This document shows, in pieces, positions 7,359 to 64,000 of a stretch of DNA of 64,000 nucleotides. How positions within the stretch are numbered: position 1 is the stretch's first letter; each line of letters starts with the position of its first letter. The position numbers were made by a program, and so were the translations under genes. This DNA is from Eledone cirrhosa (taxonomy: Eukaryota), in NCBI GenBank assembly GCA_964016885.1, contig OZ024742.1, positions 133,362,001-133,426,000 of the forward strand. The letters run 5' to 3'. Below the pieces are notes generated by a model. The model had not been told where the DNA came from. It ran no database searches and saw only the letters and a program-made list of their open reading frames with translations.

Positions 7359-8500
7359 CACACAAATGTACACACAGATACACATAGGTATGTGGAGGGC
7401 AAGGCAAAAAGAATATATGTGGGGGGGGGGGCGCATAGGAGAAGGTAAAATATAAGGGGAGGTAGGGAGAAAAAAATATATAATAAATGTAAGTATACAA
7501 GAGTACAGAACGTAGAAACAGTAAAATAAAAACCGTAGCAGAAGTAAAGAGCGGGAGAAGGAGTTCAAGGCGGTTGATTTCTCATAGGAGTGTCAATCCA
7601 GTTACAGATCAGGTGCGGTCTCAGATGAGGACAGCATCTGAAGATCTGTCTTTGAATTAAGGCAAGCGGAAGTGTCTCGCAAGTTTAGCAAAATCCTATA
7701 CTTTTCTGTGGTACACAAAGAACAATTCTTTGTGCCCCTTTGTTACTCACTCGAATGGTCTAATATAGACCAATCAATAGAGTACGGGATGTTACTATCC
7801 TTGAGTTCCCACACCTTACTTGCGAGGGCCGTTGATGTTCGTTTATCGGAGTGCTTAAAAGAAGCGACATGTGAGTAAAATCTGGTTTTAAACCTGTCCT
7901 GGGTCATACCGACATGTCGCTCACTCCTGGCTGGCTGGTTGTTGATTACTGGTGTTATCGTAGCCTCATAAACGACAGATTTAGTGTTACATCTACCCTG
8001 CAATGGGCATTCGTCCGGCTTCCTGCAACTGCATCCTGGATTTATTCTCGTCCGGTTTGAGCTGGTGATTTTGGACTTCATAGATGGGCAACAAGAGTAG
8101 CTGATCTTGACTACGTTCCTATTAAATATCTTATAGTATCTATGATTAGGAGGAAAATGTTTGTCTAATAGTTCAAGGAATTTCCTTCCTACATTAGTTT
8201 TGACAGTTAGAGAGAAGGGGGGTGTGAACCAAATAATCTTCCTTTTCCTGTTATTGTGTTTAGTTTTAGGGGGGGGGGGGAGTAGGTAAATAAGAACTGT
8301 TTTCTGTAAAACCGCTGTTCTTAAGGGCTTTATTATAATAAGGGGCGGCTTTATTAAAAATGTCTATAGACGAAGATAAGGTAGAAATCCTACGGCTAAT
8401 GTTAGGAATAAGATTATTAAAAACTATAGGGGGATGGAAAGACTCTTTGTGTATATACCTAAGATTTTCGTTAGGTTTATGGTAGGGTTTAAAAATAATA
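7090..8500 (-). mobile_element. Penelope-like element, 3' part (RT thumb, GIY-YIG endonuclease, 3' UTR)
   Basis: Minus-strand RKIIWFTPPFSLTVKTNVGRKFLELLDKHFP, GCSCRKPDECPLQGRC and VVYEATI...HVGMTQDRFKTRFYSH (ORF 7743-8081), followed by a hammerhead-like terminus near 7120. Confidence 0.85.
7120..7178 (-). ncRNA. Degenerate type I hammerhead ribozyme at PLE 3' end
   Basis: Minus strand tcatc-CTGAAGA-...-GAAA-cccttgg-TA-aatgga; GUA cleavage triplet retained, stem II eroded. Confidence 0.6.
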
Positions 8501-8616
8501 ATTAAGCTCTGTTGCTTACATAGAGCACTCTTTTTTCCTGGACTTTTCCGACGGAATTACTTCATATATATATATATATATGTGGGAGGGTATGGGTGTG
8601 TGGGGGTGTATGTGTT

Positions 8617-9798: not shown

Positions 9799-10125
9799 AT
9801 AATTGTTTCTACATTTGGCACAAGGTCCACAATTATTCAGTACATTACTGGTACTTTATTTTATCGACCCCGTAAGGATGAAAGGCAAAGTTAGCCTCGG
9901 CGGCATTTGAAGTCAGACCATAAAGTGCCGTAACTCTTTGCTGCAAAGCAAGGCGTCCGACGCTCTATCGATACTGCCAATCCACCGCCTAGATACGATG
10001 ATATAATTGTTTCTACCTCTGGCACAAGGCCGGAAATTACTCAGTACATCACCGGTACTTCATTTTATCGACACCCTAAGGATGAAAGGCAAAGCTAACC
10101 TCAGCCCGATATGAACTCAGATACG
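9799..10125 (-). mobile_element. tRNA-derived SINE, one full plus one 5'-truncated copy in tandem
   Basis: Same SINE core; short agatacg repeats at the junctions. Confidence 0.85.
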
Positions 10126-10553: not shown

Positions 10554-10610
<57 letters not shown>

Positions 10611-10866
10611 AGAAAAATGAAACGAAATTTCATTTCTCACTCTTAGTACGTCTGTTACTTAAATATAAGTATGTATACGCATATACATATATGAATACAG
10701 ACGTACAGTAGTATGTATATAAATACATGCACACATATATATATGTACGTATGGATTTACCAAACATGTATTATAATGCTCGGTTTGTTTGTAAACAAAC
10801 ATCCCGAATTAAGACTTACAGTGTTTAGCAACCAACGTTGCCATTTTGTTCAACACTGACAAAGGA

Positions 10867-10909
10867 ACGATATACTAGTTTCAAGCTTATTAGCTATCGT
10901 CAGCACCGT
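10867..10909 (-). ncRNA. Type I hammerhead ribozyme, intact core
   Basis: Minus strand acggtg-CTGACGA-tagc(taataa)gctt-GAAA-CTAG-TA-tatcgt: 6-bp stem I (with G-U pairs), palindromic ACTAGT stem III, GUA triplet. Confidence 0.8.
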
Positions 10910-11056
10910 ATACCTTCCTGCCAGATGATTGAACGTCTTAAAGTATATACTTTCCTTATGCATATTAACGGATGAGCAGCCTAATTTGCATATCGAGTGA
11001 GTTAATCGGCCGGGCGATATACTTTCAGACGTTCAATCATCTGGCCTGGAAGGTAT

Positions 11057-11099
11057 ACGGTGTCGACGATAGCAAATAAGCTTGAAACTAGTACATCGT
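11057..11099 (+). ncRNA. Hammerhead copy with mutated core (likely inactive)
   Basis: acggtg-TCGACGA-tagcaaataagctt-GAAACTAGTA-catcgt; CUGA replaced by UCGA. Confidence 0.65.
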
Positions 11100-11504
11100 C
11101 CCTTTTTCAGTGTTGAACAAAGGGGCAACGATGGTTGCTAAACACTACGGCTTAATTCGGGATGTTTGTTTACAAACAAACTGAGCATTATAATAAATGT
11201 TCGGTAAATCCATACGTACATATATATATGTGTGCATGTCTGTATATATATACATACTACTGTGCGTATGTATACATATATGTATGTACGTATACATACT
11301 TATATTTAAGTAACAGACGTACTAAGAATGAGAAATGAAATTTCGTTTCATTTTTTCCAGTTATCGTTTTCGGTGCGCCCAGCCGATTAACTTATTTCCG
11401 ATCTTCAGTGGTACTCAACACGTTAACTAAAACTACTGCTACAATGTCGGGGTGGAATTGAAAGCAGGCAAGCGAAACTCGTGTAGAATTGAAATAACAA
11501 AAAC

Positions 11505-11694
<190 letters not shown>

Positions 11695-12860: not shown

Positions 12861-13144
12861 CATTTGACAGGAAGGTATACGGTACTGATCACAGCTAGTA
12901 AGCTAGAAGCTAGTTCATCGTTCCTTTGTCTGTGTTGAACAAAAGGGCAACGATGGTTGCCGAACACTGTACGGCTAATAATTAGGGCTCTTTATTTACA
13001 TACAAACCGAGCATTATAATAAATTGTCGGTAAACCCATACGTACATATATATATATATATATATATATGTGTGCATGTATGTATGTATATACATACTAC
13101 TGTACGTCTGTATACATATATGTATGTACGTATACATACTTATA
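12861..13144 (+). mobile_element. Third, decayed copy of retrozyme-like family B
   Basis: Aligns by eye with 11038-11304; the hammerhead at 12879-12921 has a mutated core (CTGATCA...GAAG). Confidence 0.75.
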
Positions 13145-13193
<49 letters not shown>

Positions 13194-14072
13194 GTTGTCC
13201 ATATTTTGGAGGAGTCCTCTAGTCCATTGAGGGCCCACTTATCACCTTCAATAACTTCAGCCACCGTGCAACTGACTGACACAGAAAGGATCTCCTGGAC
13301 CTTTTCATTGACCTGGAATACCGGATTACCATCCATCACCACCTAAGTTAAGTAGAATTCCTGGATGTCACATTGAATTTCAAAACCGGAATATATAATC
13401 CGGACATATAGACATAAAATAATATTCTATCTAAAGTCATTTATAATGAAGGTCTGCCTTCCATGGTTTCGTTGGCAGAAGGATTCTTATTGGAACCAAC
13501 AAAAATTGAACAATCCGCAATATTCTTCACGGAAGTTGAAATTCTTCAAATGTTAAGAGAAAATTGACAAACAAATTATACATATCGTTAACGAAAGAGG
13601 GTGTGTGGTGGGACAAGGTTGTAAGGACTGTAGTCTGACATTTTTATCTTCGGCCAATCCCTCGTAAACTTTTTCAAATTTCATTTGAAAAAGGAAGCTG
13701 AATGTGGGGAGATAAGTGCTATCCCCAGTACATTTGCTAAAAGGTGGGTGAATGTCGCAGGAATGGCCCGTGTCAATGGGTATACACTAAGCATACGGCT
13801 GTAGATTGGTTCAGTTTAGGATGTGGTGGCCTCATATCGGAGTAAACATGAACCGTCAGGCGGTTTAGGATTTGTGGTGTACTTTTGTCGCACCAGAGTG
13901 GTTATGCCTCCTATTGGGGATTGTTATTGTTTATATATTTTGTTAATTGTTTTTGTTATGATTTTTCATATACGATGTTATGTAAGCTCCCATTGTCCGT
14001 CTTTGTATTATTCCTTTAAGTTCGGCTTTTGTGGCCAACAGAAAAACATCATTATTACCATTATTATTATTA

Positions 14073-14650
14073 AGGCGGTGGATTGGCAGTATAGGTAGAG
14101 AGTCGGACACCATGCTTTGCGGCATAGAGTTACGGCTCTTTATGGTCTGAATTCAAATCCCGCCGAGGTTAACTTTACCTTTCATCCTTACGGAGTCGAT
14201 AAAATAAAGTACCAGTAATGCACTGGGTATTTGCTGGCCTTGTGCCAAAAGTAGAAACAATTAACATATTATTAACGGCGGTGGATTGGCCGCATCGTTA
14301 GTGTTGGACATTATGATTTGCATCATTTAGTAACAGTCCTTTACATTGCCTTTCAACCTTAAGGGGTCGATAAAATAAAGTACCAGCAATGAACTTTGTG
14401 TCGATTTAAGCGAGTTTCTCTTTCTTTTAAAATTGTTGGCCTTGAGAAACCATTATTAAATCAGAAACCATTATTAAACCGGTAGAGGGTTGGACACCAT
14501 GCTTTGACGCATAGAGTTACGGCCCTTGTCATTCTGAGTTCAAATCCCGCCGAGGTTAACTTTGTCTTTCATCCTTACGGGGTCGATAAAATAAAGTACC
14601 AGTAATGTACTGGGTAATTGCTGGCCTTGTACCAATAGTAGAAACAATTA
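14073..14650 (+). mobile_element. Cluster of three tRNA-derived SINE copies
   Basis: ggcggtggattggcagtat...gaattcaaatcccgccgaggttaac...ccttgtgccaaaagtagaaacaatta, repeated with variation at about 14073, 14277 and 14480. Confidence 0.85.
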
Positions 14651-15030
14651 TTAGATAGTAGAAATTATTATTTGTATTATTGTTGTTTTTCCTTGTTTCC
14701 TTTTTTTTTTCGAAATCTAGATTTATTGAAGTGGTGTTTGCATTGATTCCCTTGCAGAACAAACCAAATAATAAAAACAATTCAAGATGTAATAGTGTTT
14801 ACGTGGATGATTCACTCGAATACAATCATAAAACAACCTCAACCTATGACACTGATGTGTTTACTTTTCCAATCATGTTTGTATCGTGTTTTCCTTTCCT
14901 CATGTAACGACAAAAAAACACACACACACTCTCTCTCTTTCTCTCTCATTCTTTATTTGTCTCTCCCTCCATCTAGCTATCTATCTATCTCTATCTCTTC
15001 TCTATCTCTCTCTTTCTCTCTCTCTCTCTG

Positions 15031-15764: not shown

Positions 15765-17995
15765 ATGCTTTGGGAGGGTCATGTTGCCAATAAGAAACAC
15801 ACGCACCAGTCGCTTTCACTTCAATTTATTATAATAAATTTATAATAAATTTATAAATTTATAAATTTCTGGTTGGTTGGTTGGTTCCAAAACCAGATAG
15901 TTGTTTATATATTTTCATAGTTCTTTCGTCACACACTGCCCGTTTTATGGTCTTTTCGAAGCTCATACAACGCCGTCACGTCATTGTTCCAGGCCTGGAA
16001 GTTGTTGGCAGTCCTTTTGTTGGGCTGCTTTATATTCGTCCACATCACCATATGGGCATTGAGTGCTTTTTCTCTATCCTCATGCTCCTGTGGTGTTACC
16101 TCTCTTGTGTTAGTGGTGTGGGGTTGCATTGCCTGGATGTAGTTTGGCAGGCTGTCAACCGACATTCTGCCAGACTTGTCTGTTGGAAAGCATGCTATCT
16201 CTCCATTACGCGAGTGCTGCATGAGCTTACGCAAGCCATTTGCAGATTTTTCTCCCAGTTGCTGGGCTTCCATTCTATTATGCTTCTTGCTATACTGTTC
16301 TATAATATTTCTAAGTTCGGATCTAACTATACTAAATTGTGCTTCTGTTTGTTCATCGACCTGCGACGGCAATTGCGTGCGTTTGTTAAATGGTAAAGTC
16401 GTGGCGTGGACTCGTCGCAGGTCGAACGATTTATCGGAGGGATTATAAAAAGTAGAGTTCCAGGCTGCTGATTTATGTGTACTAGTGCTATTGTTATTGT
16501 TAGTTGTGTTGTTTCTATTTCTATTTCCACCAACAGCCTCATGGTTGTTTCTATGTCTCTCATAATTACTCCTGTCTCTTTCCACTGGCTCATTGTTGTT
16601 ATCTACCCTATTTTATGTGTCTGTGTGTTCGTCTTGGTTATTTTCTTTGTCCTTAGTCTCCCTTCTCCTTTTAATCCTATTACTTTCCCTTATTTCTGTG
16701 ATATCTGTGCTACTGTCATTACTTGTTTTCTGTGTCTGTGTGTTTGTTAAGATTGTGGTGGTGGTGAGAGGCATTGAATGTGCGTGTGTTGTTGTTGTTG
16801 ATGTGTGCTGTTGTTGATGTGTGTAGTTGTTGTCTCCGTGTGTGTTATTATTGTTGTGTGTTGTTATTGTTGTTTGTGTCTGCGTGTCTGTTGTTGTTGT
16901 TTCTGGGTATGTTATTATTGTTGTTGTTTTTGTTGTTGTTGTTGTTGTTGGTGTGTGTGTTGTTGTTATTGTTGTTTGTGTCTGTGTGTCTGTTGTTGTT
17001 GGGATGTGTATTGTATATGTGTGTGCGTATATTGTTACTTTTGTTTTTGTTTTTGTTTTTGTTTTTGAGGCTCCAGCGTAGTTTTGTAAATGATTTTTCT
17101 ATTTCTGACAGACAGCTAATCATATTTACCTTCTTGAATGTCGCAAATTTCTGTGGTAGATGTAATACAGATAACTCATCGTCATCTATTACTGTGTTGC
17201 CGTATATATTTGTGTTGTTGTTGTTGCTGAACTCATCTGTTAATGAGGTGTCGGCCATATTTTTACCGTCAATTTTGTCGGGATATCTATTGGTATTCTC
17301 TACAGTATCCTGATTTAGCTTTATCTGCTTAAGCCACTTTAGTTTCTTGTTAAAGTGCTTATAACATTCTTGAGTAATGTACTGTTGTTCAGGACGTATA
17401 AGGGTTATAAATATTAGTTTCTCTCTTGGTGTGGTGATCCTAGCTATTACTTGTATTAGGTTACGCTTATGTTTTTCTTGATGACTTAATTCTCTATAGA
17501 TCTTTTTTATGTTTAGAATTAGTGTTCGTTTTAGCCTATCTGCTTCTTTTTTGGTGAGTTGTAATCTTCTTACGCCGGTGTTGATGGTGTTGGTGCAAAC
17601 TCGGGACGAGGCACATTCTTTTATGAAGTGTAGTTGTCGAGATGTTATGGTTTTTCGTAGACAACACAACATGGTGGTTTTCAGTATCTTGTTAGCCTGG
17701 CTAAGGCTTACGATATTTCGTTTCTGAATTTGTTTAGCAAGATTCTTTATCTGAAATCGTGTGTTAAAACCGATATTGTTATACTTTGGGAGGGTCATGT
17801 TGCCAATAAGAAACACACGCACCTGTTGCTTTCACTTCAATTTATTATAATAAATTTATAATAAATTTATAAATTTATAAATTTCTGGTTGGTTGGTTGG
17901 TTCCACAACCAGATAGTTGTTTATATATTGTCATAGTTCTTTCGTCACACACTCTGTGACCTCTTCAGTGACTGGGGATTCCTTTCTTTGTTTTT
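15757..17995 (-). mobile_element. Internally deleted PLE flanked by ~181-bp direct repeats (pLTRs)
   Basis: Direct repeats at 15757-15937 and 17773-17953. Minus ORFs 16848-17822 (LHLPQKFA...EIEKSFTKLRW) and 15929-16585 (PTDKSG, ALYELRKDHK) are PLE N-terminal/early RT motifs; the RT core and endonuclease are absent. Confidence 0.75.
17930..17972 (-). ncRNA. Type I hammerhead ribozyme in pLTR
   Basis: Minus strand gtca-CTGAAGA-ggtcaca(gagtg)tgtgac-GAAA-gaac-TA-tgac. Confidence 0.75.
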
Positions 17996-17997
17996 GT

Positions 17998-20900
17998 GCC
18001 TCGTCAATTTCCTCAGCCACTGACTCCGCCTCCACCTTATCCCCCTCGGCTTCCGTCTACACTTCCACCCATCCCCCGCCGCTTCCCCCTCCACGCAACA
18101 TATCCTCACCCGATCCTCACGCCTCCTGATGCGCAACTCCATCCCGCCTTAACTCCACCTGCCACCCCCTCCTCGCCCAAGCCATCCTCTCCTTCATCCA
18201 AAACCTCAACCACAACCTCTTCTCCTTCCTCAGCTCCACCAAAGCCCGCAAGCTACACTCACTCCTCCCAAACACCCCATCCACCACCACCCGCCCATCC
18301 CCATACGCCCACCACTCTCCACCTCTCCCTCGACCCACACCCCTACCTAACCCCCCACCCCCACCACCACCCAAACCCCACCCCTTGCTGTCACCATACC
18401 CCCTGACCTCCCCCTCTCCGCACCTGAGCGCTCACTCCTTAGTAGAGGCCTTCGCTTCATACCCCGAACTCCGCACAGCGACGAGTTCCGCACCCGAACG
18501 GAAGTCGAGCGATTCGTGCGACGCACTAAGCTACAGGCACATTTCGGCCGAACCCCACCGGCTGCGGACGCCCCAGACCCGTTTCTCGCCCTGGGCCGAC
18601 GACCATCTTCTTGGACGCCAGCCCCAGGGCAATTTAGTACCCTGGACGCATTCGTCGATGCCAGCCGTAGCGCAGTAAATCGTTTCGACTTCCGCCACCG
18701 TTCCAAACGGTACAATATGTCACGGGGCGAACTCATCGCTCTCCACTCCCTCCGTAGCCGAGATGACATCGTCATCAAACCGGCGGACAAGGGAGGCGCC
18801 GTAGTAGTGTGGCGCGCGGACCCCTACACGGCCGAAGCCGTCAGGCAGCTCTGTAACCCCCTCTTTTACCGCCCTCTACCCTCCGATCCCACCCCCCTCT
18901 ACCAACAACAAGTCTCCTCCACCATCAAAGACCTTATCGCCTCCTCCCTACTCCCCTCACTGCTTCCCACCTCATCGTCCGCACCCCCCGCACCCCCACC
19001 ATCTACTTCCTCCCCAAACTCCACAAACCCGACAACCCCGGCCGCCCCATCGTCTCCGCTTGCAACTGCCCCCCCGAACTCATCTCCGCCTTTCTCGACT
19101 CCATCCTCGCCCCCCTTGTCACCAGCCTCCCCTCCCACATCTCCGACACCAACCACGCCCTGCGCCTTTTCGACTCCTTCACCTACCCACCCGGCCCACA
19201 GCCCTTCCTCTTCACCCTAGAATCAATTCCCTCTATACCGACATACCCCTGTACCGACGGCCTACGCGCCCTCAAACACTTCCTCGACCTTCTCCCCTCC
19301 CCCATTCCCTCCACCCCCACCCTCCTTCGCCTCGCCGAGCTGGTCCTCACCCTGAATTGTTTTTCCTTCTCGGGTGAGTTTTACCAACAGGTCACGGGGG
19401 TAGCCATGGGTACAAGAATGGGCCCGAACTATGCCAACCTTTTTGTTGGCCATGTTGAGCCCCAAATCTTTGCCCAGTACACCAGCCCCACGCCCGAACT
19501 GTACGGTCGTTACATTGACGACTGTATCGGAGCCACGACTCTCACCCGAGAACAGCTCGACTCCTTTCTCTCCTTCCACCACTCCCTCCACTTCACCACC
19601 TCTATCTCGACCACCCACGTCCACTTCTTACACATCTCCGTCGCCTTCGACCCCTCCCACCACTCCCTCGTCACCTCCGTCTTCTTCAAACCCACCGACT
19701 CCCACTCTTACCTCGACTTCACCTCTTCCCACCCCACCCACACTAAACACTCCATTCCCTACTCCCAACTTCTCAGGATCCGCCGCCTCTGTAGCCGAGA
19801 TGCTGACTTTGAGTCCCAGGCCCTTTCCCTAGTCAGCCATTTCATCCGCAGAGGTTACCCCCCCCCCCCCCTCTCTCGTCCACACCGCTCTCACCCGCGC
19901 CCGTGCTGTCCCACGCTCCACCACCCTCACCCCACGCCACCGCACACCCACCCACCGTATCCCCTTCCCCATCACCTACCACCCCTCCACCTTACCCCTC
20001 CACCGCACCATCCGTCGCCTCTTACGACGCCTCCAGTCCGACCCCTCCACCTCCCACATCTTCCCAACCCCACCACTCCCCTCCTTCAAACGCGCACACA
20101 ATCTCCGCACCCCCCTCGTCCACAGCTCCCTACCCCCAACCCACGCTCTGTTCCCCCCCCCGGTTCCTTTCCCTGTTCTAGGCCCCGCTGCAACACCTGT
20201 CCCCACATCACCAACACCACCACCTTCCAGGGTCCCAACGGCCACTCTCTCTCTCTGTCCGGCATGCCTTCCGCTGCACCTCCTCCAACCTAGTCTACGG
20301 ACTTTGCTGCACGGAGTGCAGCGCGACTTATGTCGGACAGACGGGAGGTCGCCTGGCGGATTGATTCACTGAACACCTCCGGGATATTCGTCTCGGGGGT
20401 AGTTCCCCCATCGCCCGCCACTTTGGTGGCCCTGGACATTCCACACGCCATCTCACAGTCTGTGGCCTACTCCAGTGCCACGGAACACCCGCCAATCGCC
20501 TTAGGGTCGAACAACGAACTATCTTCATCTTACAGACCCACACTCCCCCCAGCCTGAACTCTCCACCCTTATTCCTCTAGCCTTCGACCGTCCGCCCCCA
20601 CACTCACACACTTATCCCACACTAACATACCCCTCCTTTTCACCGCCCACCCCACAACTAACAATACTAACACCTCCACCCCACCCCTCATCTGACCACC
20701 CTTCCCCAACTAACATACTAACATCCCTCCCTTCTTCTCCTCCTCCCCCTCCTTATCACACGCACACACACACCGGCACATATATACACGCGCTCACACT
20801 AAACACACACCCTACTACCACCACTAACCATCACCCCCACATCTCTCACCCCCACACCTCCATCCCACCACCCCGCAACTAACCTCACTAACACCCCCTA

Positions 20901-31189: not shown

Positions 31190-33010
31190 CCAAGTAAACG
31201 AGGTATCGTTTAAGGTTATCCAAGGAGAGGTTCTGAGTAATCTGTACCGTGGAGGATTTTTTAACGTTCGGCGTTGGTTGACTGAACAAGATGTTTACTT
31301 AGTTGTGGTGTTCGGAGGGCCGATTTCGGACAGTTCCGAGGTAAGGAGTTCCTGGAGTATTAATAACAAAAGAATGAAGATTAACATTGATAAGCTATAC
31401 AGTAGGGTTTTATTCCAAGCATTTAAATATGTAAAAAAAAACATACCCATAACTAAAAATAGTGATTATACTCTCTCATGACACTACGCACTATTGATTA
31501 TATCCGTCCCATCAGGTGGAAAGCATATCACTACGACAAGGGACATGCAAACACTGATGAGAGAAATACAAAGAAAAAATACGGATTTATATCGTGTAAA
31601 AACCCACCAATTAACCCCCAACTTGATGCATGTGAACTTGACCTCATGAATATGGTAAGCGGGATCAGATTCAAAAAAGCGCACAAACTGAAAAATGACA
31701 AAAATGCATCATTGAAAATATTATGCAATACCGATGGGATTATAGTCAAGGTGGTCAAAACATCGAATGTATACAGCATGAAGATAGGCACAGAGAACTG
31801 CATAAAAAGTACATGAAAACCTCCGAATAACTTGCAGTTATTAATCTTGAAGGATTTAATATAGTGAAAAACTCGTACTTGCTGAAAGAACAGAACCTTT
31901 AAATCCATGCAGCCCCACTTTCACCTGAAAGACCATAAAAGTAATTTCAAAACAGAACCTACAATTAGACTGATATGCCCACCCAAATCTGATATAGGTA
32001 GAATATACTAGATAGTGTAATAGCGCAACTCAAAGATAAACAAAGGGTAAAACTATGGGGTAGCACTAGTGAGACAAACGACTGGTTTAATAGAAGAGAC
32101 AATACGGGAGATCCCAAATTCATACAATTCGATATTAATGATTACTATTCATCCATATCCTTAGTCATCTTAAATAAGACAGTAACATTCGCTAAGCAAA
32201 ATCCAGATCTAATCATGGATGAAATTAGGATAGTAATAGCTGCTCGGAGAAAGATCATTAAATTCGAAAACCAATACTGGGAACGACGTGATAGAGAAAA
32301 TAGCTTTGATATTGCTATGGGATCTAGCGACCCTTTGCAAGTCACTGACATAGTCGAAATATATATGGTTAATAATATTCATGAGGAATTTCCTAAACTC
32401 CAAGGAGGAATTTATAAAGACAATGCGCTTCTACTAGCTAAAACACAAATAACCAGAACCTGGAAAGGTTACGAATGAACATAATGGTCTTATTTTGTAA
32501 ACTAGGCCTCGTAATTAGCTAATTCCTTAGATATAACACTTAACTTAAATATGGGATTAATAGAACCTATCCATAAATATAATGAAAACCTAGTGTATCA
32601 ATCAAACCATCCACGTTCCATAATGAAATCAGTAGCAAATAGTATAACCCTTAGAATATCCTGCCTATCATCTACACCAGAAATATATAAGGAACATGCA
32701 GACTGTTACAACACGGCATTAGGCAAGGCAGGTCACTTAGAGGGGCTCTAATACCTCTATGATCGCGACCATAACAATCATACACCTAGCGACAATTATG
32801 ATGCCCGCCATAATATAAATAACAGACATAGGACTAGACCTAAAAATAAGCAGCATATACAGGGAATAGCTGAACAAAATAAGAACATCAGAACTTCTAA
32901 GACGAAAATGTTTACAAACGGCGAACGGAAACAAACCCATCCCCGTGCACTAAATACAACAGCCAAATAACGGCCACGTAACCGCCACCACCACATCACC
33001 TATCCCATGA
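31190..33010 (+). mobile_element. Decayed PLE (N-terminal and RT region)
   Basis: KNIPITKNS, IRWKAYHYD, KYGFISCKNPP, FIQFDINDYYSSIS, FDIAMGSSD, GIYKDNAL and SNHPRSIMKS, with many stops. Confidence 0.8.
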
Positions 33011-33011
33011 T

Positions 33012-33630
33012 AATAATTGTTTCTACTTTTGGCACAAGTCCAGCAATTACGCCAGTGCATTACTGGTACTATATTTTATCGGCCCGGTAAGGAAGAAGGG
33101 TAAAGTTAAAATCGGTGTGATTGAACTGAGACCATAAAGGGCCATAACTTTATGCTGCAAAGCATGGCGTCCGACCCTCTACCGAGACTACCAATCCACT
33201 GCACAATCCTATGATAATAATGATTTCTATTATAGACACAAGGCCAGCAATTTAGAGGGCAGGGAAAGATGATTAAATCGACCCGTGTATTGCTGGTATT
33301 TTATTTTACCGACCGCGTAAGGATGAAAGGCAAAGCCAACCTCGGCGGGATGTGAACTGAGAATGTAAAGGGCCATAACTCTATGCTACCAGACATCTGC
33401 ACAATCCTATGATAACAATGATTTCTATTATAGACACAAGGCCAGCAATTTAGAGGGCAGGGAAAGATGATTAAATCGACCCGTGTATTGCTGGTATTTT
33501 ATTTTACCGACCGCGTAAGGATGAAAGGCAAAGCCAACCTCGGCGGGATGTGAACTGAGAACGTAAAGGGCCATAACTCTATGCTACCAGACATGGTGTC
33601 TGACGTTTACCGATACTACCAATCTACGGC
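33012..33630 (-). mobile_element. SINE cluster including a near-identical ~190-bp tandem duplication
   Basis: SINE core occurs three times; ~33200-33397 and ~33398-33592 are almost identical. Confidence 0.85.
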
Positions 33631-33694
33631 TCTTCATTCCCATGATGTAGTTTCCATATAGTTTCCAGCTGTTGTCTTCCTGTTTCTTCTACAA

Positions 33695-35305
33695 CAACTA
33701 CAACGGTACGCGATGGGGACCCACCCAGGCCCCGGCGGACAGAATGGAGAAGGCGTTTCCCCGGAGGACGGCAAGAGAGACGCGCTGAAAAAGCCGGTCC
33801 AACTCGCGGGGCTCACATCTGCGGATGGCCAGCTCAGCACCTATGCTGGTGAGTAAGGAGATAGCCCTGGTGCCGAGGACACCAGAAGTCTCCATTGCCA
33901 GGGGTACGCCCGCAAACCTGTCAGAGAGCGACCGACGTGTAGTAGAACCTGGGCCAGTCACAGACAGCACCAGGTTGCGGCTGCAGAAAGTGTCGGTGCA
34001 AGTGGCATCCCAGACGAGAGGTTTGCCACCGCGGAACGGGAAGAAGGTCATGCCATCTGGCCTTTTGCTGTCCCCTCGATCCAGCCCCACCGGCTCGAGC
34101 TTGGAAGGGAAGCCTGCAGCGTCCAAGCCATGCTTAATAACCTCGATGAGGGCAGCGTCGCGTGGAATGCGGCCGGCTCTGTGGCGACAGGAAAGTGGGT
34201 AGAGGCCGAAAGAGTCCATGAGGGAACCGCAACGACATTGGTTTGGCTGGCAGATCCGGAGGCCGAGCCTCATGGAAACGCCGATGCGCAGGCTATGGTT
34301 GTCTAGCTGCGTGCCAGTGAAGAAGGAGGGCAGGGCATGAGGCCAGGCACCACTCTGGGGTATGGAAGCCGCATGAAAACAAGAAACGCAGTGCTGGTTG
34401 AGCTGGCGCGTGAGCCTGTCTGAGGCCAAGCCGCAGTGGATGGCATCTCATGTGCGTTGGGGAACTTGACGTCAACAGAGCGAGAAGGAGGAGGGCGTCT
34501 ACTGGACTAAATACCAGCCGGTCCCACGTCTCACAGCCTGCCTCACGTTCTCTGAACACAGAGGGTTATGTTGTGTTTTGAAGAAACACTGCTGATGAGG
34601 ACCCGGCACTAGGTCACCGACGAAAGATACGCCGGCAAACCTAGTGAGATCGGGGACCGGAGGTCAAGGCCGCCATACCTGACAGGGAAAGTGGCCTGTT
34701 GCCACCCTATGTCGTCAAACTTGACAAGTATCGATGTCAGCGATGAGAGATGTCTGGGTGTAGCACGGAGTGCTGCGGAGTGTATAGTGGAACGTCGGCA
34801 TGGCGAAGCAGTTCCTCAGCAGAAAGAGAACTGGGTGGCCATCGATCAAGCCCAGTCGGCCCGTGTGAGTCTGGAGCTGTTGAAGGCTGGACCTGATGGT
34901 GGAGCGGATGGCCGGCGGGTAGATCGGTGACCTGAGGATGAGGACATCATCTTTGGGGGTCACCTGAACCTGGCGGAGATGGACCGCACGTCCAAGACGG
35001 ATACTGCAAAGCTCGCAACATCGGGGCTGACATTCACCATCTCCGACTTGGCCGAGTTGACCTGGAGGCCGATCCCGCCAGAGCAGGAACCACCGATTGA
35101 ACCTCATGGCAGAGCGTCTGTAGGGGCCCGCCTAACGTAGTATCATCCATATACCAAACGTTGAGAGGAGCTATGATACCCCGGGCGATGTGATCAATAC
35201 CAAGGACGAAGAGGAGGGGTCCAAAAGGGTCTCCCTATCGGGCCCCAGTAGCCGAGGGTATGACCGTATCAGCAGCAAGGAGCATGCTCTCGGCTCCATC
35301 TCGCA
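33695..35305 (-). mobile_element. CRE-like non-LTR retrotransposon fragment (RT plus restriction-like endonuclease)
   Basis: GDPFGPLLF and WYMDD (RT); ORF 33698-34429 has CRCG..., EPVGLDRGDSKRPDG and KPLVWDATCTDT, typical of the RLE domain of CRE-type elements. Confidence 0.8.
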
Positions 35306-40954: not shown

Positions 40955-42545
40955 AATATTGTTATACTTGGGGAGGGTCATATTTGTGTAATATTGCCAG
41001 AATTAATAACAGAACACACTCACTGTTTGGTTGGTTTTCGCTTTTCGCTTCTGTGTCTTTTATATCGGTAATCTAACTTACTCGCTCCTCAATGTTGCCA
41101 TTGACTGACCGACTGTCAAAAATAATACAGATACAATGTAGACACAAACACATATATATATAGTTTATCATAAATCTTTCGTTGCACATCTGCAACATCG
41201 TCTGTGGTGCTATCGTTTCCTCCCGTTGCATTGTATGTCTACGCCATTTTTATTCAGTCTGTCTATATATTTATTTATTTATTTGCTTGTTTGTTTATTT
41301 TTTTTAATTTTGTCTTCTTTGCGCATGGGTTTGCGTGTGTGTATAGCGTTTTGTTTGATGTGTGATGGGTGACTAGTGTGTGTTTATGTGCTTGTTGTTA
41401 TTGTGCTTGTGTATGTATTTATTTATTTATTTATTTATTTTATTTTATTTACTTATTTATACTTCTCTTAGGTCAGTGTTGTTAGTTTGGGTGTTGTTGT
41501 TATTCCATTCATTCTTTCTGTTTAGTCTTGGTCTTCTAAGTTCTATTTCACTGGCCTCTCTGATTTGCCTATCTGCTGGGTCATTTCTATGTTTAGATAT
41601 TATTCTAATTTCTATGTTGTCTATGTTACCGTCATGTTGTTGTCTAGCATGTTCGTATAGTACTGACCCGTTTTTAGTCCTTTTAGTTCCCCCCAGTGTT
41701 GGTCTATCCTTTGACCTATGCTACGAGCTGCCTCACCTATGTATGTTGTTGTCATGTTTCTGCAAGTACCCTCTGTACATCTCATGCTACAGGCTACGTT
41801 TCTAGTTTTACAGTTTATCCGGGGGTTTACCTTACATATGATACATTTTCTATTGGTACAGTGGGTTTTCTTAAAAGGGTAGGTTTTGCTGATCAGGGAT
41901 TTTATGGTGTTTCCTGGCTTTTCTACCACCTTAATTTTTAAGTGGGTCTTTCTCAGGGCCTTTCTACACTGGTTAGCTAATTTCCCTCCAGGGGTAGCGT
42001 CCACAAACTTGACACTCTGGTATCTCTGGTTATCGTACCATGAGGTGGCTTTCCCTATCTTATGTCTAGCCCTATCTAAGCTATTCCATGATTTGCTCCT
42101 GTATAATAGGCAAATTCCTTTCATGTCCAGTTCTATGAGGGTCTTATACTTCTCCATGGCTCCTTCGTATACTCTGACTCTGTCTCTTTGGTTGTAGCCA
42201 GAGAACTGCATGCGGTTGATGAAGTGTTGGATGTGTCTTTCCATTTCTGTTGGGTCGCACATGCGGGATACATTCTTCATCACTCGTACCAAATCTGCGA
42301 TCAGAATATTAAACGTAGCACTACTGGACATTGCTGAGTCTTTGAGTATCAGGTATTTGGAGGCCATGGGTTTAGCATAGTGTGAGTGGAGAATTTGGGC
42401 TCTCCCGTCTATAGTGTTAATCCAGAGTTATGTGACTAATACAGGTAGTCTATTGTTAGGGTGTTTGGAAGGGAAGTCGATAGTTACAGTTATACTCTGG
42501 TGTATGGAATTAGCTATCTGCTGGACGCTTTCCATTCTGCTACGT
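40955..42545 (-). mobile_element. PLE 3' part (thumb, GIY-YIG, 3' terminus)
   Basis: ORF 41621-42367 has FVDATPGGKL, CTNRKCIIC and TYIGEAARSIGQRIDQH; the terminus resembles the pLTR at 15757. Confidence 0.85.
41167..41208 (-). ncRNA. Degenerate hammerhead at PLE 3' end
   Basis: Minus strand CAGACGA-tgttgca(gatg)tgcaac-GAAAgattTA; perfect stem II, U4 mutated to A. Confidence 0.55.
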
Positions 42546-48594: not shown

Positions 48595-49075
48595 AATAAT
48601 AATTAAGATGGTTTTTGATTTAGGCAGGGGAAAATCGATTAAATCGAACCCAGTGTGTTATTAGTGCTTTATTTTATCGACCCTGTAAGGATGAAAGGCA
48701 AAGCTATCCTCGGTGTGATTTGAACTCAGAACATAAAGAGCCGTAACTTTAAGCTGCGGAGTATGATGTTCGACTCTCTACCGATACTGCCAATCCACCG
48801 CTATTGATAATGGTTTCTGAATCAGACACACGGCCAGCAATCTGCCAATCCACTACCCACAACAATAATAATTGTTTCTATTTTTGACACAAGGCCAGCA
48901 ATTATCCCAGTGCATTACTGGTACCCTGTTTTATCGACCCCGTAAAGATGAAAGGCAAGGTTAACCTCGGCAGGTTTGAACTCAGAACGTAAAGGGACGT
49001 AGCTCTATGCTGCAAAACATGGCGTCCGACCCGCTACTGATACTACCAATCCACCTCAATAATAATAATAATATT
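48595..49075 (-). mobile_element. SINE cluster (two near-full copies plus fragments)
   Basis: SINE core at about 48670 and 48930. Confidence 0.85.
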
Positions 49076-54018: not shown

Positions 54019-54592
54019 GGGTTCTCCTACATGGATATAAAGTAGTGGCCGTACTCGAAAACGAGTTGGCAACCACCATGTATATGTAAATTTATATAAA
54101 AAATAGATGAAATCGAAAATGCAACTGGAGTCTTGTTTTTAAAGAAATATATATATTTATTTGGTTCCTTTACAGGTTTCGCAGTTCTTCTGTAGAGTTG
54201 AGATGGAGGGTCTGTGGTTTTTCTCACATCTGGTTGATCTTTGAATGTTACTTGTGTGATATGGAAAAAAGTGGTTCGAAACGCCAGGTTTTTAGAGAAG
54301 TAATTTGATTGGTTGGTCAATAAGTATAATAAATTTCGCACCAGTTCGCGTTACAAAGTTCTTCAAACAAGGAGGGGGTGGGCGCTTTCAGGTTGTTTTT
54401 TTCATATATGAGTGTTTGAATTTCTTTTTACTTAAAAAAGGGGGCTCACGAAGGCTTTTTTTTATAAATGCAATGTGATTGGTTATAAATGAAATTATGG
54501 TTGTCGCGTGAACAAGTTCATTAAATTTCGCGTCCGTATTTTGGAATTTATTTTATAGTCTTTTAGAGAATTTTATGACAAACAAAAATAAT

Positions 54593-54779
54593 TGTTTCTA
54601 CTATTGGCACAAGGCCAGAAAATTACCCAGTACATTACTGGTACTTTATTTTATCGACCCCGTAAGGATGAAAGGCAAAGTTAACCTCGGCGGGATTTGA
54701 ACTCAGAATGGCAAGGGCCGTAACTCTATGCGTCAAAGCATGGCGTCCGAACCTCTGCCGATACTGCCAATCCACCGCC
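54593..54779 (-). mobile_element. Full-length tRNA-derived SINE with 18-bp target-site duplication
   Basis: atgacaaacaaaaataat at 54575-54592 and 54780-54797; A box tggcagtatcgg and B box gagttcaaatcc on the minus strand. Confidence 0.92.
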
Positions 54780-55859: not shown

Positions 55860-57508
55860 AAACCATATTTAATGCAAGCCTATATTTTTGAATAAACATA
55901 TTTTCCTTATTTATTCGTATTTGTTCTGTTGTATTGTTAGTGCAAAGGTAAAATGGGAAGACTTGGAATTTGGGTGTCTTATTACTTGCGCATATGTCTA
56001 GATACGCGCTTAGTGGTATCTGTCTCGTGGTTGAATCTCGTAATTATTGGCGATGAACTGTTATTCTGTTTCTGAGTGTGAGTTTAGTTTGTCCTATATA
56101 TTGTTCATTGCATCCTTTACATTTAATGGCATAAAGTAAATTTTTTGATGAGCAAGTGAAGTCATTTTTTTACGGCAAAATTTTGTCCTGATTTAAATGT
56201 ATACGTGTTCCCTTCAATGAGGTGAGTGCAGGTTCCACAATTAGAGCGACCACATTTTTTGACAGTTGGTTGTGAGTTTGTGGTAGGTAATTTGGCATTG
56301 TTGAGTAATGTTTTCAGTGATTTCGGTTGTCTTTTGCTTTTGAATATGTTGTGTGTTTCAAGGGCTTTTTTCATTCTTGGGTCTTGTTTCAGTAGTGGGA
56401 TGTTCTTGTGAATAGTGTTGTAAGCTTCCGCATTTCTTGGGTTGTGTGTTGAGATATATGATAGAATATTGGATGTGCCTTGAATTTGTTTTTGTTTTCG
56501 TAATTCATCAATACCTATTGCTTTAGCCCTTTCTATTCCATTATTTATTAGTAATGGTCTTTCGAGCAGAATTTCCTTTAATTCTTGAAGTCTTTTATTT
56601 CGCGTTTCATAATTGGAGACAATTGTGCAAATTCTTCTTGCTAGGTTAAAAGGAATGTTCGTCTTCGTGTGATTTGGATTGTTGGAGGTGAATAGCAGGT
56701 ATTGTTTGGAATCTGTTGGTTTGTAATGTATGTCAGTTTCAATATTTGTGTCTTTTTTTAAGATTAAGATATCCAGAAATGGGAGTTGATCTTGGCTGTA
56801 TTCCATTGTGAATTGGATTTGGTTATTGATGCTGTTTATTAAGTTTTTGAAATATTCAGTTGGTTGAGTGTGTGGGGCCAAAGAATGAGACGATCATCCA
56901 AGTAGCGTTTCCAATTCTCTGATAAATATTTGTGGAAGTTCAATCCGTATTTTGATTTGGACTGTTCATATATCTGGACTTCTAAGTATGCCATGACTAA
57001 GTTGGTATAAGTTGGGGCGGCTTTAGTAACCATCGCAGTCCCCGATATTTGCTTGTAAGTACTACCATCGAAATCAAAAAAGTTGTTCTGTAAGATAAAT
57101 GTTAATCCCTCGGTGATGAAGCTTTTTTCTATTCTGCCAGGTATTTCATTGGGATATTTCTCTAGCCAGAATCCTATTGCTTCTAGTCCGTATTGGTGTG
57201 GGATCGTTGTGTAGAAATTCACTACATCGAAAGACACAATAATAGTGTCGTTGTTGGCATGTTTGGGGATGTGGTTTAAGAGGTCCAGATCATCTCTTCA
57301 ACGCCTTGGTATGTGTTTGAGAATTGGTTTTAGTAGTATGTCTATAAACTTGCTCAGTCTGTGTGTTTCACATTGCGGGCCCGCTACAATTGGTCTTAAT
57401 TTAGGGTCTGTGGGGTATTGTGTGTTCATGCAGGCTGAGGTGGATTGTTTACAGACACCGTTAATTATGTTACACTTGTGGTTCTTCGGAAGTCCGTAAA
57501 GGTTGATA
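55860..57508 (-). mobile_element. 5'-truncated Neptune-like PLE (RT, thumb, GIY-YIG); repetitive 3' UTR probably continues toward ~54100
   Basis: LYGLPKNHK, LRPIVAGP, SFDVVNFYTTIP, GTAMVTKAAPTY, RYLDD, KPTDSKQYL, CGRSNCGTC and LLYAIKCKGCNEQYIGQT. Confidence 0.9.
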
Positions 57509-57612
57509 CATATATATATATCTGTATGTAACCACACAGGCGGACCGGGTTTTAGAGTCATACGAGTTTTCAAGGAAACACATTTCCTCTATTTTCCAGA
57601 GGGCCAGACAGG

Positions 57613-57657
57613 AATATTGGACTAGTTTCGATGTTATTACATCTCATCAGCAATATT
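57613..57657 (-). ncRNA. Type I hammerhead ribozyme (array copy 1)
   Basis: Reverse complement of aatattg-CTGATGA-gatgt(aata)acatc-GAAA-CTAG-TC-caatatt. Confidence 0.9.
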
Positions 57658-58081
57658 TACCCATCTTCCGGCTTCTCTGGAGAATTGTAAAAGCACATAT
57701 CGTTATATGCTTTTTCTATGAAAATTAGTAGTGGGTAGACCAATTTGCATAGAACGTGAGTCATTGTACGCACCGGTTCAGCGGAAACGATAAAAACAAA
57801 TAACGAAACGAAATCAAACTTCGTTTCGCTTCTAACTCACTTTTGTATGACTGACGCTTAAACAATTAAGTTAAAGTGTACATCTACATATGTATACGGA
57901 AGTATTAGTATGCATATAAATACACACATGTATACATATGTACATGTACTCAGCTTTTCACTAGACACTTTACAGTGAGTGTCAGCTAGTCTGTATGTAA
58001 CCACACAGGCGGACCGGGTTTTAGAGTCATACGAGTTTTCAAGGAAACACATTTCCTCTATTCTCCAGAGGGCCAGACAGG

Positions 58082-58126
58082 AATATTGGACTAGTTTCGA
58101 TGTTATTACATCTCATCAGCAATATT
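58082..58126 (-). ncRNA. Type I hammerhead ribozyme (array copy 2)
   Basis: Same motif, 469 bp from copy 1. Confidence 0.9.
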
Positions 58127-58559
58127 TACCCATCTTCCGGCTTCTCTGGAGAATTGTAAAAGAAATGTGTTTCCTTGAAAACTCGTATGACTCTAAAACC
58201 CGGTCCGCCTGTGTGGTTACATACAGACTAGCTGACACTCACTGTAAAGTGTCTAGTGAAAAGCTGAGTACATGTACATATGTATACATGTGTGTATTTA
58301 TATGCATACTAATACTTCCGTATACATATGTAGATGTACACTTTAACTTAATTGTTTAAGCGTCAGTCATACAAAAGTGAGTTAGAAGCGAAACGAAGTT
58401 TGATTTCGTTTCGTTATTTGTTTTTATCGTTTCCGCTGAACCGGTGCGTACAATGACTCACGTTCTATGCAAATTGGTCTACCCACTACTAATTTTCATA
58501 GAAAAAGCATATAACGATATGTGCTTTTACAATTCTCCAGAGAAGCCGGAAGATGGGTA

Positions 58560-58604
58560 AATATTGCTGATGAGATGTAATAACATCGAAACTAGTCCAA
58601 TATT
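58560..58604 (+). ncRNA. Type I hammerhead ribozyme (array copy 3); predicted cleavage after GUC at 58597
   Basis: Stem I aatattg/caatatt, CUGAUGA 58567-58573, stem II gatgt/acatc, GAAA 58588-58591, palindromic ACUAGU stem III. Confidence 0.92.
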
Positions 58605-59028
58605 CCTGTCTGGCCCTCTGGAGAATAGAGGAAATGTGTTTCCTTGAAAACTCGTATGACTCTAAAACCCGGTCCGCCTGTGTGGTTACATACAGACTAG
58701 CTGACACTCACTGTAAAGTGTCTAGTGAAAAGCTGAGTACATGTACATATGTATACATGTGTGTATTTATATGCATACTAATACTTCCGTATACATATGT
58801 AGATGTACACTTTAACTTAATTGTTTAAGCGTCAGTCATACAAAAGTGAGTTAGAAGCGAAACGAAGTTTGATTTCGTTTCGTTATTTGTTTTTATCGTT
58901 TCCGCTGAACCGGTGCGTACAATGACTCACGTTCTATGCAAATTGGTCTACCCACTACTAATTTTCATAGAAAAAGCATATAACGATATGTGCTTTTACA
59001 ATTCTCCAGAGAAGCCGGAAGATGGGTA

Positions 59029-59073
59029 AATATTGCTGATGAGATGTAATAACATCGAAACTAGTCCAATATT
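59029..59073 (+). ncRNA. Type I hammerhead ribozyme (array copy 4); predicted cleavage after 59066
   Basis: Identical motif. Confidence 0.92.
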
Positions 59074-59497
59074 CCTGTCTGGCCCTCTGGAGAATAGAGG
59101 AAATGTGTTTCCTTGAAAACTCGTATGACTCTAAAACCCGGTCCGCCTGTGTGGTTACATACAGACTAGCTGACACTCACTGTAAAGTGTCTAGTGAAAA
59201 GCTGAGTACATGTACATATGTATACATGTGTGTATTTATATGCATACTAATACTTCCGTATACATATGTAGATGTACACTTTAACTTAATTGTTTAAGCG
59301 TCAGTCATACAAAAGTGAGTTAGAAGCGAAACGAAGTTTGATTTCGTTTCGTTATTTGTTTTTATCGTTTCCGCTGAACCGGTGCGTACAATGACTCACG
59401 TTCTATGCAAATTGGTCTACCCACTACTAATTTTCATAGAAAAAGCATATAACGATATGTGCTTTTACAATTCTCCAGAGAAGCCGGAAGATGGGTA

Positions 59498-59542
59498 AAT
59501 ATTGCTGATGAGATGTAATAACATCGAAACTAGTCCAATATT
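59498..59542 (+). ncRNA. Type I hammerhead ribozyme (array copy 5); predicted cleavage after 59535
   Basis: Identical motif. Confidence 0.92.
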
Positions 59543-59842
59543 CCTGTCTGGCCCTCTGGAGAATAGAGGAAATGTGTTTCCTTGAAAACTCGTATGACTC
59601 TAAAACCCGGTCCGCCTGTGTGGTTACATACAGACTAGCTGACACTCACTGTAAAGTGTCTAGTGAAAAGCTGAGTACATGTACATATGTATACATGTGT
59701 GTATTTATATGCATACTAATACTTCCGTATACATATGTAGATGTACACTTTAACTTAATTGTTTAAGCGTCAGTCATACAAAAGTGAGTTAGAAGCGAAA
59801 CGAAGTTTGATTTCGTTTCGTTATTTGTTTTTATATATATAT

Positions 59843-61900: not shown

Positions 61901-62199
61901 TTGTACCAAATAAGGAAATACCCCCTAAGAAGTTCGGCTATTTATTTACCAGGCTAAACATTCTTATTTAGTCCAGAAATAGCCGTCGAACGGTTTGAGC
62001 TCTGCCGTCAGGATCATACTTGTTCCTATTATCCACTCTACTACCCTAAGTATTGAGTACTTTGGTGCGTTATGGTCCATCTGGTTGCTTAACACAATTC
62101 CGTCGTTATCTATCTCCTATCTCCGTAGTTGAGCACATTCCGACCCTACCACGCCTTATCCACACTTTTCCGCCCAGTTCAAGTTTTTTCAGCCGCACT

Positions 62200-64000
62200 A
62201 TGCGAAAACACAAATCGACTTCTCCACCAAGAACATGCCAGTTCCACCGAGAACACTTTACCTTCGGATGCTCACGCACAAAATTGACCTCTTTGCGAAA
62301 AGACTAAGATGGAGATCTTTTTTCTACGACAGATACCGTGACAATCAGGACTTCGATGCCAAAGAGAGATTCGGATTTAATACCTACAAATCTCCCCCTC
62401 CGAACCCTATGCTCTCACCCTTCGAGAACGACCTTTTCCAACTGGTCAAGAGCAATAAATTCAAACCCAGACACAACAGATTCCTACAAAAGCTCCGTAG
62501 AAAATTAACAGAGTATGAAAACACCAACGACATCATGGTGCACTCGGACAAAACTGGAAACCTCTACTTCGTCAACCCCGACAGATACCACACTCTGACC
62601 AGGAGCAGCATAAACTGCACCTATAAAAAGGCTAACCATTCAAGTATCGAGGACATAAATCGAGATGGACAACAAATTACCACAAGACTCGGGGTCGCCG
62701 ACCGCACTGAACCCCTAGACACATGGACACCCTACTTCACACTGAACGACCACGAATCCGACTTCGACCGCAAACCATCCATCAGGTTTACAAACCCAAC
62801 GAAGTCCGACCTAGGGAGAATCAGTAACTCTCTATGTAAAACTGGATGAATGTTGTGTCTCGTTTGTCCTCCATATTGCCGAACCATGAGATTACTTCCT
62901 GGGTGTTTATCCATAGGCTAAGTCTCGCGTTTTGCTTCACTTTTGTCATAACGCGGTCTAGGATTTTTTTTACTGATTCTTCCTAGGCAGATATTCGACG
63001 AGCATGTGCCTTATTACAACCAGGCCCTCAAGCGGAGTGGCTTCCGGGAGGAAATATCCTATTATCCAGCTTCCATTAGCGGAACCAGGCGACACCGCCG
63101 CTCACGCAACGTAACGTGGTTCAATCCTCCCCACAATGCCGAGGTGACCATACCTATCGGGAAAATCTTCTGTAGGCTGCTCGAAAAACACTTTCCACTA
63201 AAACACCGCTACCAGAACATAATCAACAAAAACACCATCAAACTCTCCTACAGCACCACACCTAACTTCGCACAAAACATCGTCTCCTCTAACAACAAAA
63301 TACTCTACCCCTATGGAAGAAATAACCTAGACACCAGTGGAGAGCCGACCAGGAGGTGTAACTGTCCTGATAGATCCATGTGCCCCTTCAACAACAGATG
63401 CCGAGATCGTAATGTGATCTACCAGTGCAACGTGAAGACGGACACCTTCAACAAATCTCATATAAGATTAACCGCTTGAGACTTCAAGACCCGGCTCTAC
63501 CAACACCGACATACTTTCCGAAACCCGGCCCGGTGACATGCCACTACACTTTCGGGCCACATCTGGGACCTCAAAGATAATAATATAACCTACAATCTCA
63601 CTTAGAGCTTACTGTCCAGAGCTAACTCTTACATGGAAGGATGCCGTCCGTGTAACTTATGCTCGGAGGAAACATTACAAATGATGTTTTCGAAGGACCA
63701 ACTCCTAAACAAGGAAGACGAACTGGTAACCGCATGCAAACACAGATTGCGTAGGACTTACCTCGCTCTCAAACCCCATAATGACCCAGGGGGAGGGGGG
63801 AGACAAGGGCTGATACCCCCCCCCACCTTGACGATTTTGTAAGGTGCTTACAAAGGTAGACGTAACTTTTTTATCTTTTCCTCTATGATTCCTTCTTCCC
63901 CCATCTCTTCCTAGTTATTCCACCCCAGATCTCCTTCCTCGTCTTTTTTTCACCTTTCGCCTACCCCGATGCAGCCCATCGACCCTCTGTAGCCTTAGTA
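62200..64000 (+). mobile_element. PLE with N-terminus, deleted RT core, internal inversion and GIY-YIG region
   Basis: ORF 62235-62849 (KRLRWRSFFY, SDKTGNLY, NPTKSDLGRIS) and ORF 63006-63479 (RNVTWFNPP, CNCPDRSMCPFNNRC, VIYQC), then CNLCSEE. Confidence 0.88.

Follow-up and report, generated by a model that had tools for sequence, protein, structure and literature searches.

The segment at 10609-11392 of the window (the whole 64,000-nucleotide stretch of Eledone cirrhosa DNA analysed here) is best read as one head-to-head insertion of two 5'-truncated 425-bp hammerhead units into a TA microsatellite, likely written by a Penelope-like element (PLE) from an RNA longer than one unit; we put the probability of this reading at about 0.8. 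The element itself is likely a decayed, non-autonomous non-LTR retrozyme of a known kind, carried as a PLE passenger. Directly visible are the unit, the continuity of its end with its start, its kinship to a 469-bp family, the hammerhead layout, the TA flanks, the head-to-head junction, and a 33-nt offset between the outer ends. The family evidence comprises three insertions in one 64-kb window of AT-rich, microsatellite-laden animal DNA; a tandem array of the 425-bp family is not among them.

The left arm (10609-11016, minus strand) carries 408 nt of the 425-bp unit, and its 3' end abuts the (TA)n tract. The right arm (11017-11392, plus strand) carries unit positions 69-425, followed by the first 17 nt of the unit once more. 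By BLAST, the arms are 91.2% identical over 341 nt (10948-10609 on the minus strand against 11017-11355 on the plus strand); their alignment of 334 columns holds 11 transitions, 12 transversions, and three gap blocks. Each arm reaches past the other at one end: the left by 68 bases at its 5' end, and the right by 33 nt at its 3' end (11360-11392, plus strand), a one-sided extension within the size range of the PLE "tail." The first-pass annotation had described the apparent palindrome as two diverged copies of a ~425-bp unit, and this description holds.

The same annotation proposed that the end of the unit runs into its own start. Indeed, the last 17 of the right arm's 33 extra bases (11376-11392, plus strand) match the first 17 of the left arm (11016-11000, minus strand) at 16 of 17 positions, and the unit closes on itself at 409 + 16 = 425 bp. 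The best matches to this block elsewhere in the 64-kb window, searched with up to four mismatches, were two with four mismatches. This 17-nt run beyond the unit end is the head-to-tail evidence for the 425-bp family within the window. Direct terminal repeats are absent from the layout of the arms, neither arm holds an open reading frame of at least 90 aa, and GC in the regions of both families is 33-37% (2-kb bins).

Set against a third copy of the family over 265 columns, the left and right arms each have 10 private changes and share 22. The equal private counts suggest that the arms were alike when made and have decayed equally since. An excess of A-to-G changes between the arms, the mark of an edited template, was not found (three of 20 polarised changes). 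A read-through transcript of the insertion is predicted to fold into a long hairpin with 320 arm-to-arm pairs; given this hairpin and at most one intact hammerhead, monomers are unlikely to arise from this copy. The copy at 10609-11392 is probably dead: its hammerheads lie on opposite strands, and one has a mutated core.

The third copy (12857 to about 13143-13148, plus strand), which the first-pass annotation did not list, is a single arm, ~82% identical by BLAST, with its 3' end at (TA)n. The sister family is represented by a minus arm (57521-58162; 642 nt, two hammerheads) and a plus arm (58162-59834) of 3.6 identical 469-bp units with three hammerheads and a 3' end at (TA)n. This element is likewise head-to-head. 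Its arms are 99-100% complementary, the 469-bp pieces differ at one of 1673 compared bases, and the array is very young. (As a separate observation, the TA-flanked array at 57521-59834, with its intact GUC hammerhead, is a better bench candidate than the 425-bp locus.)

The two units are related along their length. BLAST aligns the left arm to a 469-bp dimer at ~62% identity over 428 columns, and the local alignment score is 170, compared with 33 ± 5.5 in 300 dinucleotide shuffles (z 24.9); an alignment no better than shuffled controls, which would have told against kinship, is thus not what was found. The 5' part of the left arm, freed of its TA tract, retains a z of 14.2 and a score of 82, against a maximum of 61 in 264 real background segments. 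For the 95-nt 3' piece the local score is 49 (z 6.9), which does not separate it from real background of the same length, where 50 was reached. The hammerhead and the TA tract, being common to both units, were left out of a further comparison, in which four colinear pieces aligned globally with z values of 5.9, 3.3, 6.3, and 4.8 (reached by 0, 2, 0, and 0 of 1000 shuffles). All six wrong-order pairings of pieces scored negative. The weakest piece lies just downstream of the hammerhead, and its local score is not above that of unrelated loci. Thus the ordered blocks that the first-pass annotation had listed by eye hold up (z ~25 overall, 3-6 in four pieces), and colinearity together with a common hammerhead layout supports its proposal of two related hammerhead-bearing families. 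Moreover, the end-to-start order of the right arm is the order found within the perfect 469-bp tandem, which makes the permutation a property of the lineage rather than a one-off jump.

Direct parsing finds the core and stems in the left arm and in all five motifs of the 469-bp family. The left-arm hammerhead, placed by the first-pass annotation at 10867-10909 (minus strand), is there at the level of motif: type I, with an intact core, a 6-bp stem I, a GUA triplet, and a predicted cut at 10873/10872. Its counterpart in the right arm (11057-11099, plus strand) has C3U4 changed to UC (UCGACGA versus CUGANGA) and is predicted to be inactive; the third copy retains a decayed hammerhead with two core changes (CUGAUCA and GAAG). 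Both families share one layout: GUA-N; a 6-bp stem I; CUGANGA; a 4-bp stem II with the 6-nt loop WAAUAA; GAAA; and a helix III that is the palindrome ACUAGU. Pairing of this palindrome between two copies gives a 6-bp helix (-6.2 and -6.8 kcal/mol), and a dimer mode has been described for such palindromic-helix-III motifs (PMC4209133).

Between the left arm and the 469-bp unit, 24 of 27 non-stem bases are identical, versus seven of 20 stem bases. The earlier statement that the stems differ completely while pairing is kept was too strong in its first half, given those seven bases. Its second half stands for nine of 10 stem pairs: five changed on both sides and still pairing, one changed on one side, and three unchanged. 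The exception is the first stem II pair, 10.1-11.1, which is G-C in the 469-bp unit and U-U in both arms. A U-U at the base of helix II also occurs in axolotl HHR_Amex2, for which 22% monomer cleavage in one hour is reported (PMC7229834). In a four-sequence alignment, both members differ in five of 14 named pairs, and covariation scores 0.417, compared with 0.209 ± 0.065 in shuffles (reached by one of 500) and at most 0.167 in slid controls. This is one family-against-family contrast among four sequences, with a shuffle control that ignores relatedness and less power than R-scape would need. Because it amounts to a single evolutionary contrast, the putative stem compensation between the 425- and 469-bp families is suggestive at most.

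Several features speak against activity of the 425-bp hammerheads: the triplet is GUA, not GUC; the cores of the right arm and third copy are changed; and Rfam returned no hammerhead in 10780-11200 at E ≤ 10, missing both arms. The 469-bp unit was matched to HH9 (31.8 bits, E 2.3e-6), below the gathering score of 52, and over the whole window Rfam gave mainly TA-repeat microRNA noise. In the lowest-energy fold of the left arm, stem I extends into the core; the constrained hammerhead fold is ~3 kcal/mol worse.

The insertion sits within a (TA)n target tract (10558-10608), the last TA unit of which is apparently found past the insert, at 11393-11394. To the left lies (TA)25, while the sequence to the right starts TA-TTTCC, so that the empty site reads as a single tract interrupted close to its end. 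The next 172 bp to the right (11393-11564) match nothing else in the window or the loci examined and were taken as flank. (Farther along, at 11505-11567, a 22-bp unit repeated 2.9 times abuts a (TA)33 run.) TA runs also lie on both sides of the 469-bp element. All three insertions have 3' ends at TA tracts, a count in which, for the third copy, the TA-rich tract of the unit itself may introduce a bias; runs of (TA) with at least five repeats cover 1744 of the window's 64,000 bases. Both two-armed insertions, two of the three, are head-to-head with their 3' ends outward.

Relative to C3, the 3' ends of the five arms fall at +295, +329, +258, +330, and +130, and the 5' ends at -113, -46, -28, -43, and +64, too few to tell scatter from clustering. 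No arm ends at the predicted cut site, and every hammerhead-containing arm reads through it; such read-through calls for a template that is either an uncut multimer or a re-ligated circle. The two families also share a hairpin (11332-11349, plus strand; left-arm counterpart 10619-10636, minus strand). The left arm and the 469-bp plus arm stop 10 and 12-15 nt past this hairpin, and the right arm ends 33 nt beyond the left arm. With five ends, such near-coincidence by chance is not unlikely. The 3' ends of the 469-bp element lie 200 nt apart, which leaves the tail pattern in one of two head-to-head insertions.

In the literature, PLE insertions can carry an inverted 5'-truncated copy and a tail of 30-40 bp at one end, with a bias for (TA)n (PMC8557442); a tail of 31 bp, described as optional, and mostly head-to-head junctions are reported elsewhere (PMC3846280). 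In vitro work with a purified PLE protein showed cutting and extension on both strands of the target, initiation at two sites inside the RNA that bound the tail, and no need for hammerhead cleavage in insertion (PMC11167929). Head-to-head junctions have also been explained by self-priming on an antisense template (PMC3846280), so two-strand priming is not the sole model in print. The head-to-head layout, (TA)n target, and 33-nt extension are the published PLE insertion signature, which the first-pass annotation missed. From that signature the likely mobiliser can be named, and "circular permutation" becomes an expected outcome for a known class. Of the annotation's further proposal, copying from circular or multimeric RNA, the part that stands is a template longer than one unit, as the end-to-start continuity here and in the perfect 469-bp tandem indicates.

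The window also holds remains of PLE coding sequence. A broken, 5'-truncated ORF (55861-57501, minus strand) with reverse transcriptase, CxxxxCxxC linker, and GIY-YIG adjoins the 469-bp array. It lacks residues 1-221 of a 772-aa relative, to which it is 66-76% identical, and contains frameshifts and stops. The linker marks the Neptune and Nematis clades (PMC8557442), and by sequence the local remains look Neptune-type. Among 28 matches to a PLE reverse transcriptase frame in the window, the best named relative is from Octopus bimaculoides (75% identity); the other named relatives are from Argonauta, Octopus sinensis, bivalves, and a coral. The ORF beside the array probably predates it as a separate insertion, with a later hit at its TA-rich 5' edge. 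It attests to suitable machinery in the genome, not to the movement of the 425- and 469-bp units by a PLE. By eye, further decayed frames look Penelope-like (7743-8556, 15929-17831, and 41621-42427, minus strand; 18351-20562 and 62133-63479, plus strand; and 31466-32478). A tblastn search with the PLE relative confirmed only the frames near 56-57 kb and 19-20 kb, and Pfam recognised two of nine PLE-like frames, both below cut-off.

Might the arms instead be what is left of the pLTRs of an autonomous PLE? An inverted, head-to-head pair of pLTRs plus a tail is the classic arrangement for PLEs (PMC8557442, PMC3846280); the 469-bp array lies directly 5' of the PLE ORF, its minus arm on the same strand; and hammerheads of this class occur near PLE ORFs in two metagenome loci, L019 and L027. 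The permutation would then come from a one-off template jump that placed post-tail sequence before the left arm. However, the same end-to-start order recurs in the 3.6-unit 469-bp tandem, and the homology between families crosses the supposed jump point. The neighbouring ORF is broken and 66-76% identical to its relative, whereas the array differs at one of 1673 bases, and within the window no copy of either unit follows the 3' end of any PLE ORF, as the pLTR of an autonomous PLE would. We consider this account improbable. Alternatively, a single retrozyme copy may have undergone inverted duplication at the DNA level, by fold-back or break repair, in which case the palindrome would say nothing about reverse transcription. 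The equal divergence of the arms fits any event that once made them identical. Yet each arm has sequence missing from the other (the left 68 nt at its 5' end, the right 16 nt at its 3' end), and homology to the 469-bp family identifies both stretches as true unit sequence. In addition, the flanks rejoin into a single TA tract, and the sister family has the same layout independently. Such duplication has a slim chance of being the explanation.

The 340-bp inverted arms with TA on both sides also resemble a MITE of the Tc1/mariner type, with the arms as long TIRs and TA as the target duplication. Nevertheless, one outer end reaches 33 nt farther than the other, the third copy has one arm and different ends, the sister family forms a head-to-tail tandem, and a hammerhead with stem compensation lies inside. 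Fixed TIR-bounded palindromes, which the first-pass annotation had set against its own proposal, are not what the window holds: the ends differ in every arm. The MITE reading is very unlikely, and within the window it is largely refuted. An assembly artefact, a fold-back chimera, is scarcely credible. Arms that are 99-100% complementary, as in the 469-bp element, could come from a fold-back read; arms that differ by ~9% with indels, as in the 425-bp element, could not, and for both elements the unique flanking sequence differs from one side to the other. (A Helitron, with hairpin and CTAG, was also considered and rejected, as no arm ends at CTAG.)

If the insertion was written by a PLE from retrozyme RNA, the events may have run as follows. 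A tandem master array of the 425-bp family elsewhere would be transcribed. Its hammerheads, with their palindromic helix III, would cut only as dimers, releasing monomers that may be ligated into circles; alternatively, uncut multimers would serve directly as template. A Neptune-type PLE protein would then nick both strands of the (TA)n tract and extend both 3' ends, with two start points inside the RNA, 33 nt from each other and immediately 3' of the conserved hairpin. Both cDNAs would stop early and be joined in inverted orientation, and the arms would decay equally afterwards. On this PLE-retrozyme reading, a linear multimer would be a slightly better than even guess for the template, and a circle would fall somewhat short of one.

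A more specific idea is that the 33-nt offset and the common hairpin are the footprint of a PLE reverse transcriptase dimer starting at two fixed sites on circular retrozyme RNA. Two-site initiation is drawn from one insertion, and this fuller reading is rather unlikely as matters stand. If true, the hairpin, kept across families ~62% alike, would act in cis as the signal that lets cephalopod retrozymes exploit Neptune elements, and would provide the first defined substrate for an in vitro test of the PLE-retrozyme partnership.

Metazoan non-LTR retrozymes (Cervera and de la Pena 2020, PMC7229834) are similar in their short, low-GC, non-coding unit with one type I hammerhead of canonical size, and in a tandem arrangement, seen here in the 469-bp family. 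The axolotl pair Rtz_331 and Rtz_353 likewise comprises two related families, one with a U-U at the base of helix II. The 425-bp unit fits the size and GC range for retrozymes (~150-450 bp, GC below 45-50%), and the 469-bp unit lies slightly above it. Compared with retrozyme RNAs of 170-400 nt and repeats of 150-450 bp in that report, both units exceed the RNAs and are at or near the repeat range. On these sequence features the 469-bp family qualifies as a non-LTR retrozyme directly, and the 425-bp family would do so through kinship and continuity. Expression, cleavage, and circles were demonstrated in that report, whereas the present families are known from sequence alone. Its main text, as available, does not contain octopus, cephalopods, "opposite," or "orientation."

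That retrozymes are non-autonomous PLE derivatives was concluded by Li, Clavereau and Pollet (2026, bioRxiv 10.64898/2026.07.22.740005), who name the same mobiliser as here. Their case is built on co-occurrence and pLTR phylogeny in 35 genomes (31 vertebrates, three insects, and one coral); ours is built on insertion anatomy. They describe coexisting monomers, dimers, and multimers, family lengths of 51-972 bp, and cleavage in only one of nine tested Xenopus dimers. The word "inverted" occurs once in the available text, and the present window yielded no autonomous partner whose pLTR is related.

EN+ PLE insertions (Craig et al. 2021, PMC8557442; Arkhipova et al. 2013, PMC3846280) share with this one the 5' truncation, a head-to-head inverted copy, a one-sided tail (30-40 bp there, a candidate of 33 nt here), a microsatellite target, no readable TSD, and a hammerhead in the repeat. 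They differ in that here there is no ORF and the repeating unit is 425 bp rather than about 3 kb. The PAc protein (Frangieh et al. 2024, PMC11167929) belongs to the Poseidon clade, whereas the local ORF remains look Neptune-type. Earlier palindromic-helix-III hammerheads share the palindrome and likewise imply dimer action, and in Schistosoma opposite-strand motif pairs 100-700 bp apart have been noted. In contrast to those motifs, the present ones have canonical sizes (helix I of 6 bp, helix II of 4 bp, 6-nt loop), and position 10.1 directly follows position 9. Chlamys elements such as MRC1 (PMC8557442) are also PLE-dependent, non-coding, and inserted as multicopy head-to-tail arrays; their host is a green alga, and most are described as lacking canonical hammerheads.

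The retrozyme class, permutation, and inverted layout were thus each already known, and the PLE link is in print (PMC7229834; bioRxiv 10.64898/2026.07.22.740005). What is new is the cephalopod host, the pair of sister families whose hammerhead stems show putative compensation, and a retrozyme with the anatomy of a PLE insertion. (Full-text searches of open-licence papers, covering their main texts, turned up no account of retrozymes in cephalopods.) Mobilisation of animal retrozymes by PLEs has so far been argued from co-occurrence and pLTR phylogeny; PLE anatomy on a self-closing unit is more direct, if small, evidence, and it predicts where reverse transcription starts. A specialist may find the result tidy rather than surprising.

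Outside the window, the hammerhead core pattern was found at 31 metagenome loci. The hammerhead pattern had no match in viral contigs, nor the family-specific pattern in prokaryote contigs, and none of the 31 loci was found to be homologous to either unit beyond the core. Their upstream flanks score 8-24, compared with 43 for the 469-bp unit; downstream they score 10-30, a range from which the 469-bp unit (24) is not separated. In two of the 31 loci (L019 and L027), a hammerhead of this class shares its strand with a PLE ORF 1.5-2.4 kb away, so the type of ribozyme does not separate retrozymes from pLTRs.

Several of these loci merit mention in their own right. One core (L002, 753-782) is identical to the left arm at 29 of 30 positions, including the U-U pair and the GUA triplet, with a stem I that is different and still pairs; its flanks are unrelated to the units and score at background. 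That 1153-bp contig has a 78-bp terminal repeat, compatible with a 1075-bp tandem unit or circle, and short ACCCTA repeats. Eighteen of the 31 loci form one unrelated hammerhead family from one metagenome set (L001, L003, L004, L007-L009, L011, L012, L015-L018, L020, L021, L023, L024, L029, and L030). One member of that family, L016, has two motifs on opposite strands pointing apart, the same layout in an unrelated family.

Elsewhere in the window, the frames at 33698-35131 (minus strand) resemble, by eye, a decayed non-LTR retrotransposon that ends in a restriction-like endonuclease. A dispersed repeat family of ~200 bp (1542-1732, 9799-10120, 14068-14653, 33013-33632, 48612-49058, and 54589-54779) presumably resembles octopus SINEs.
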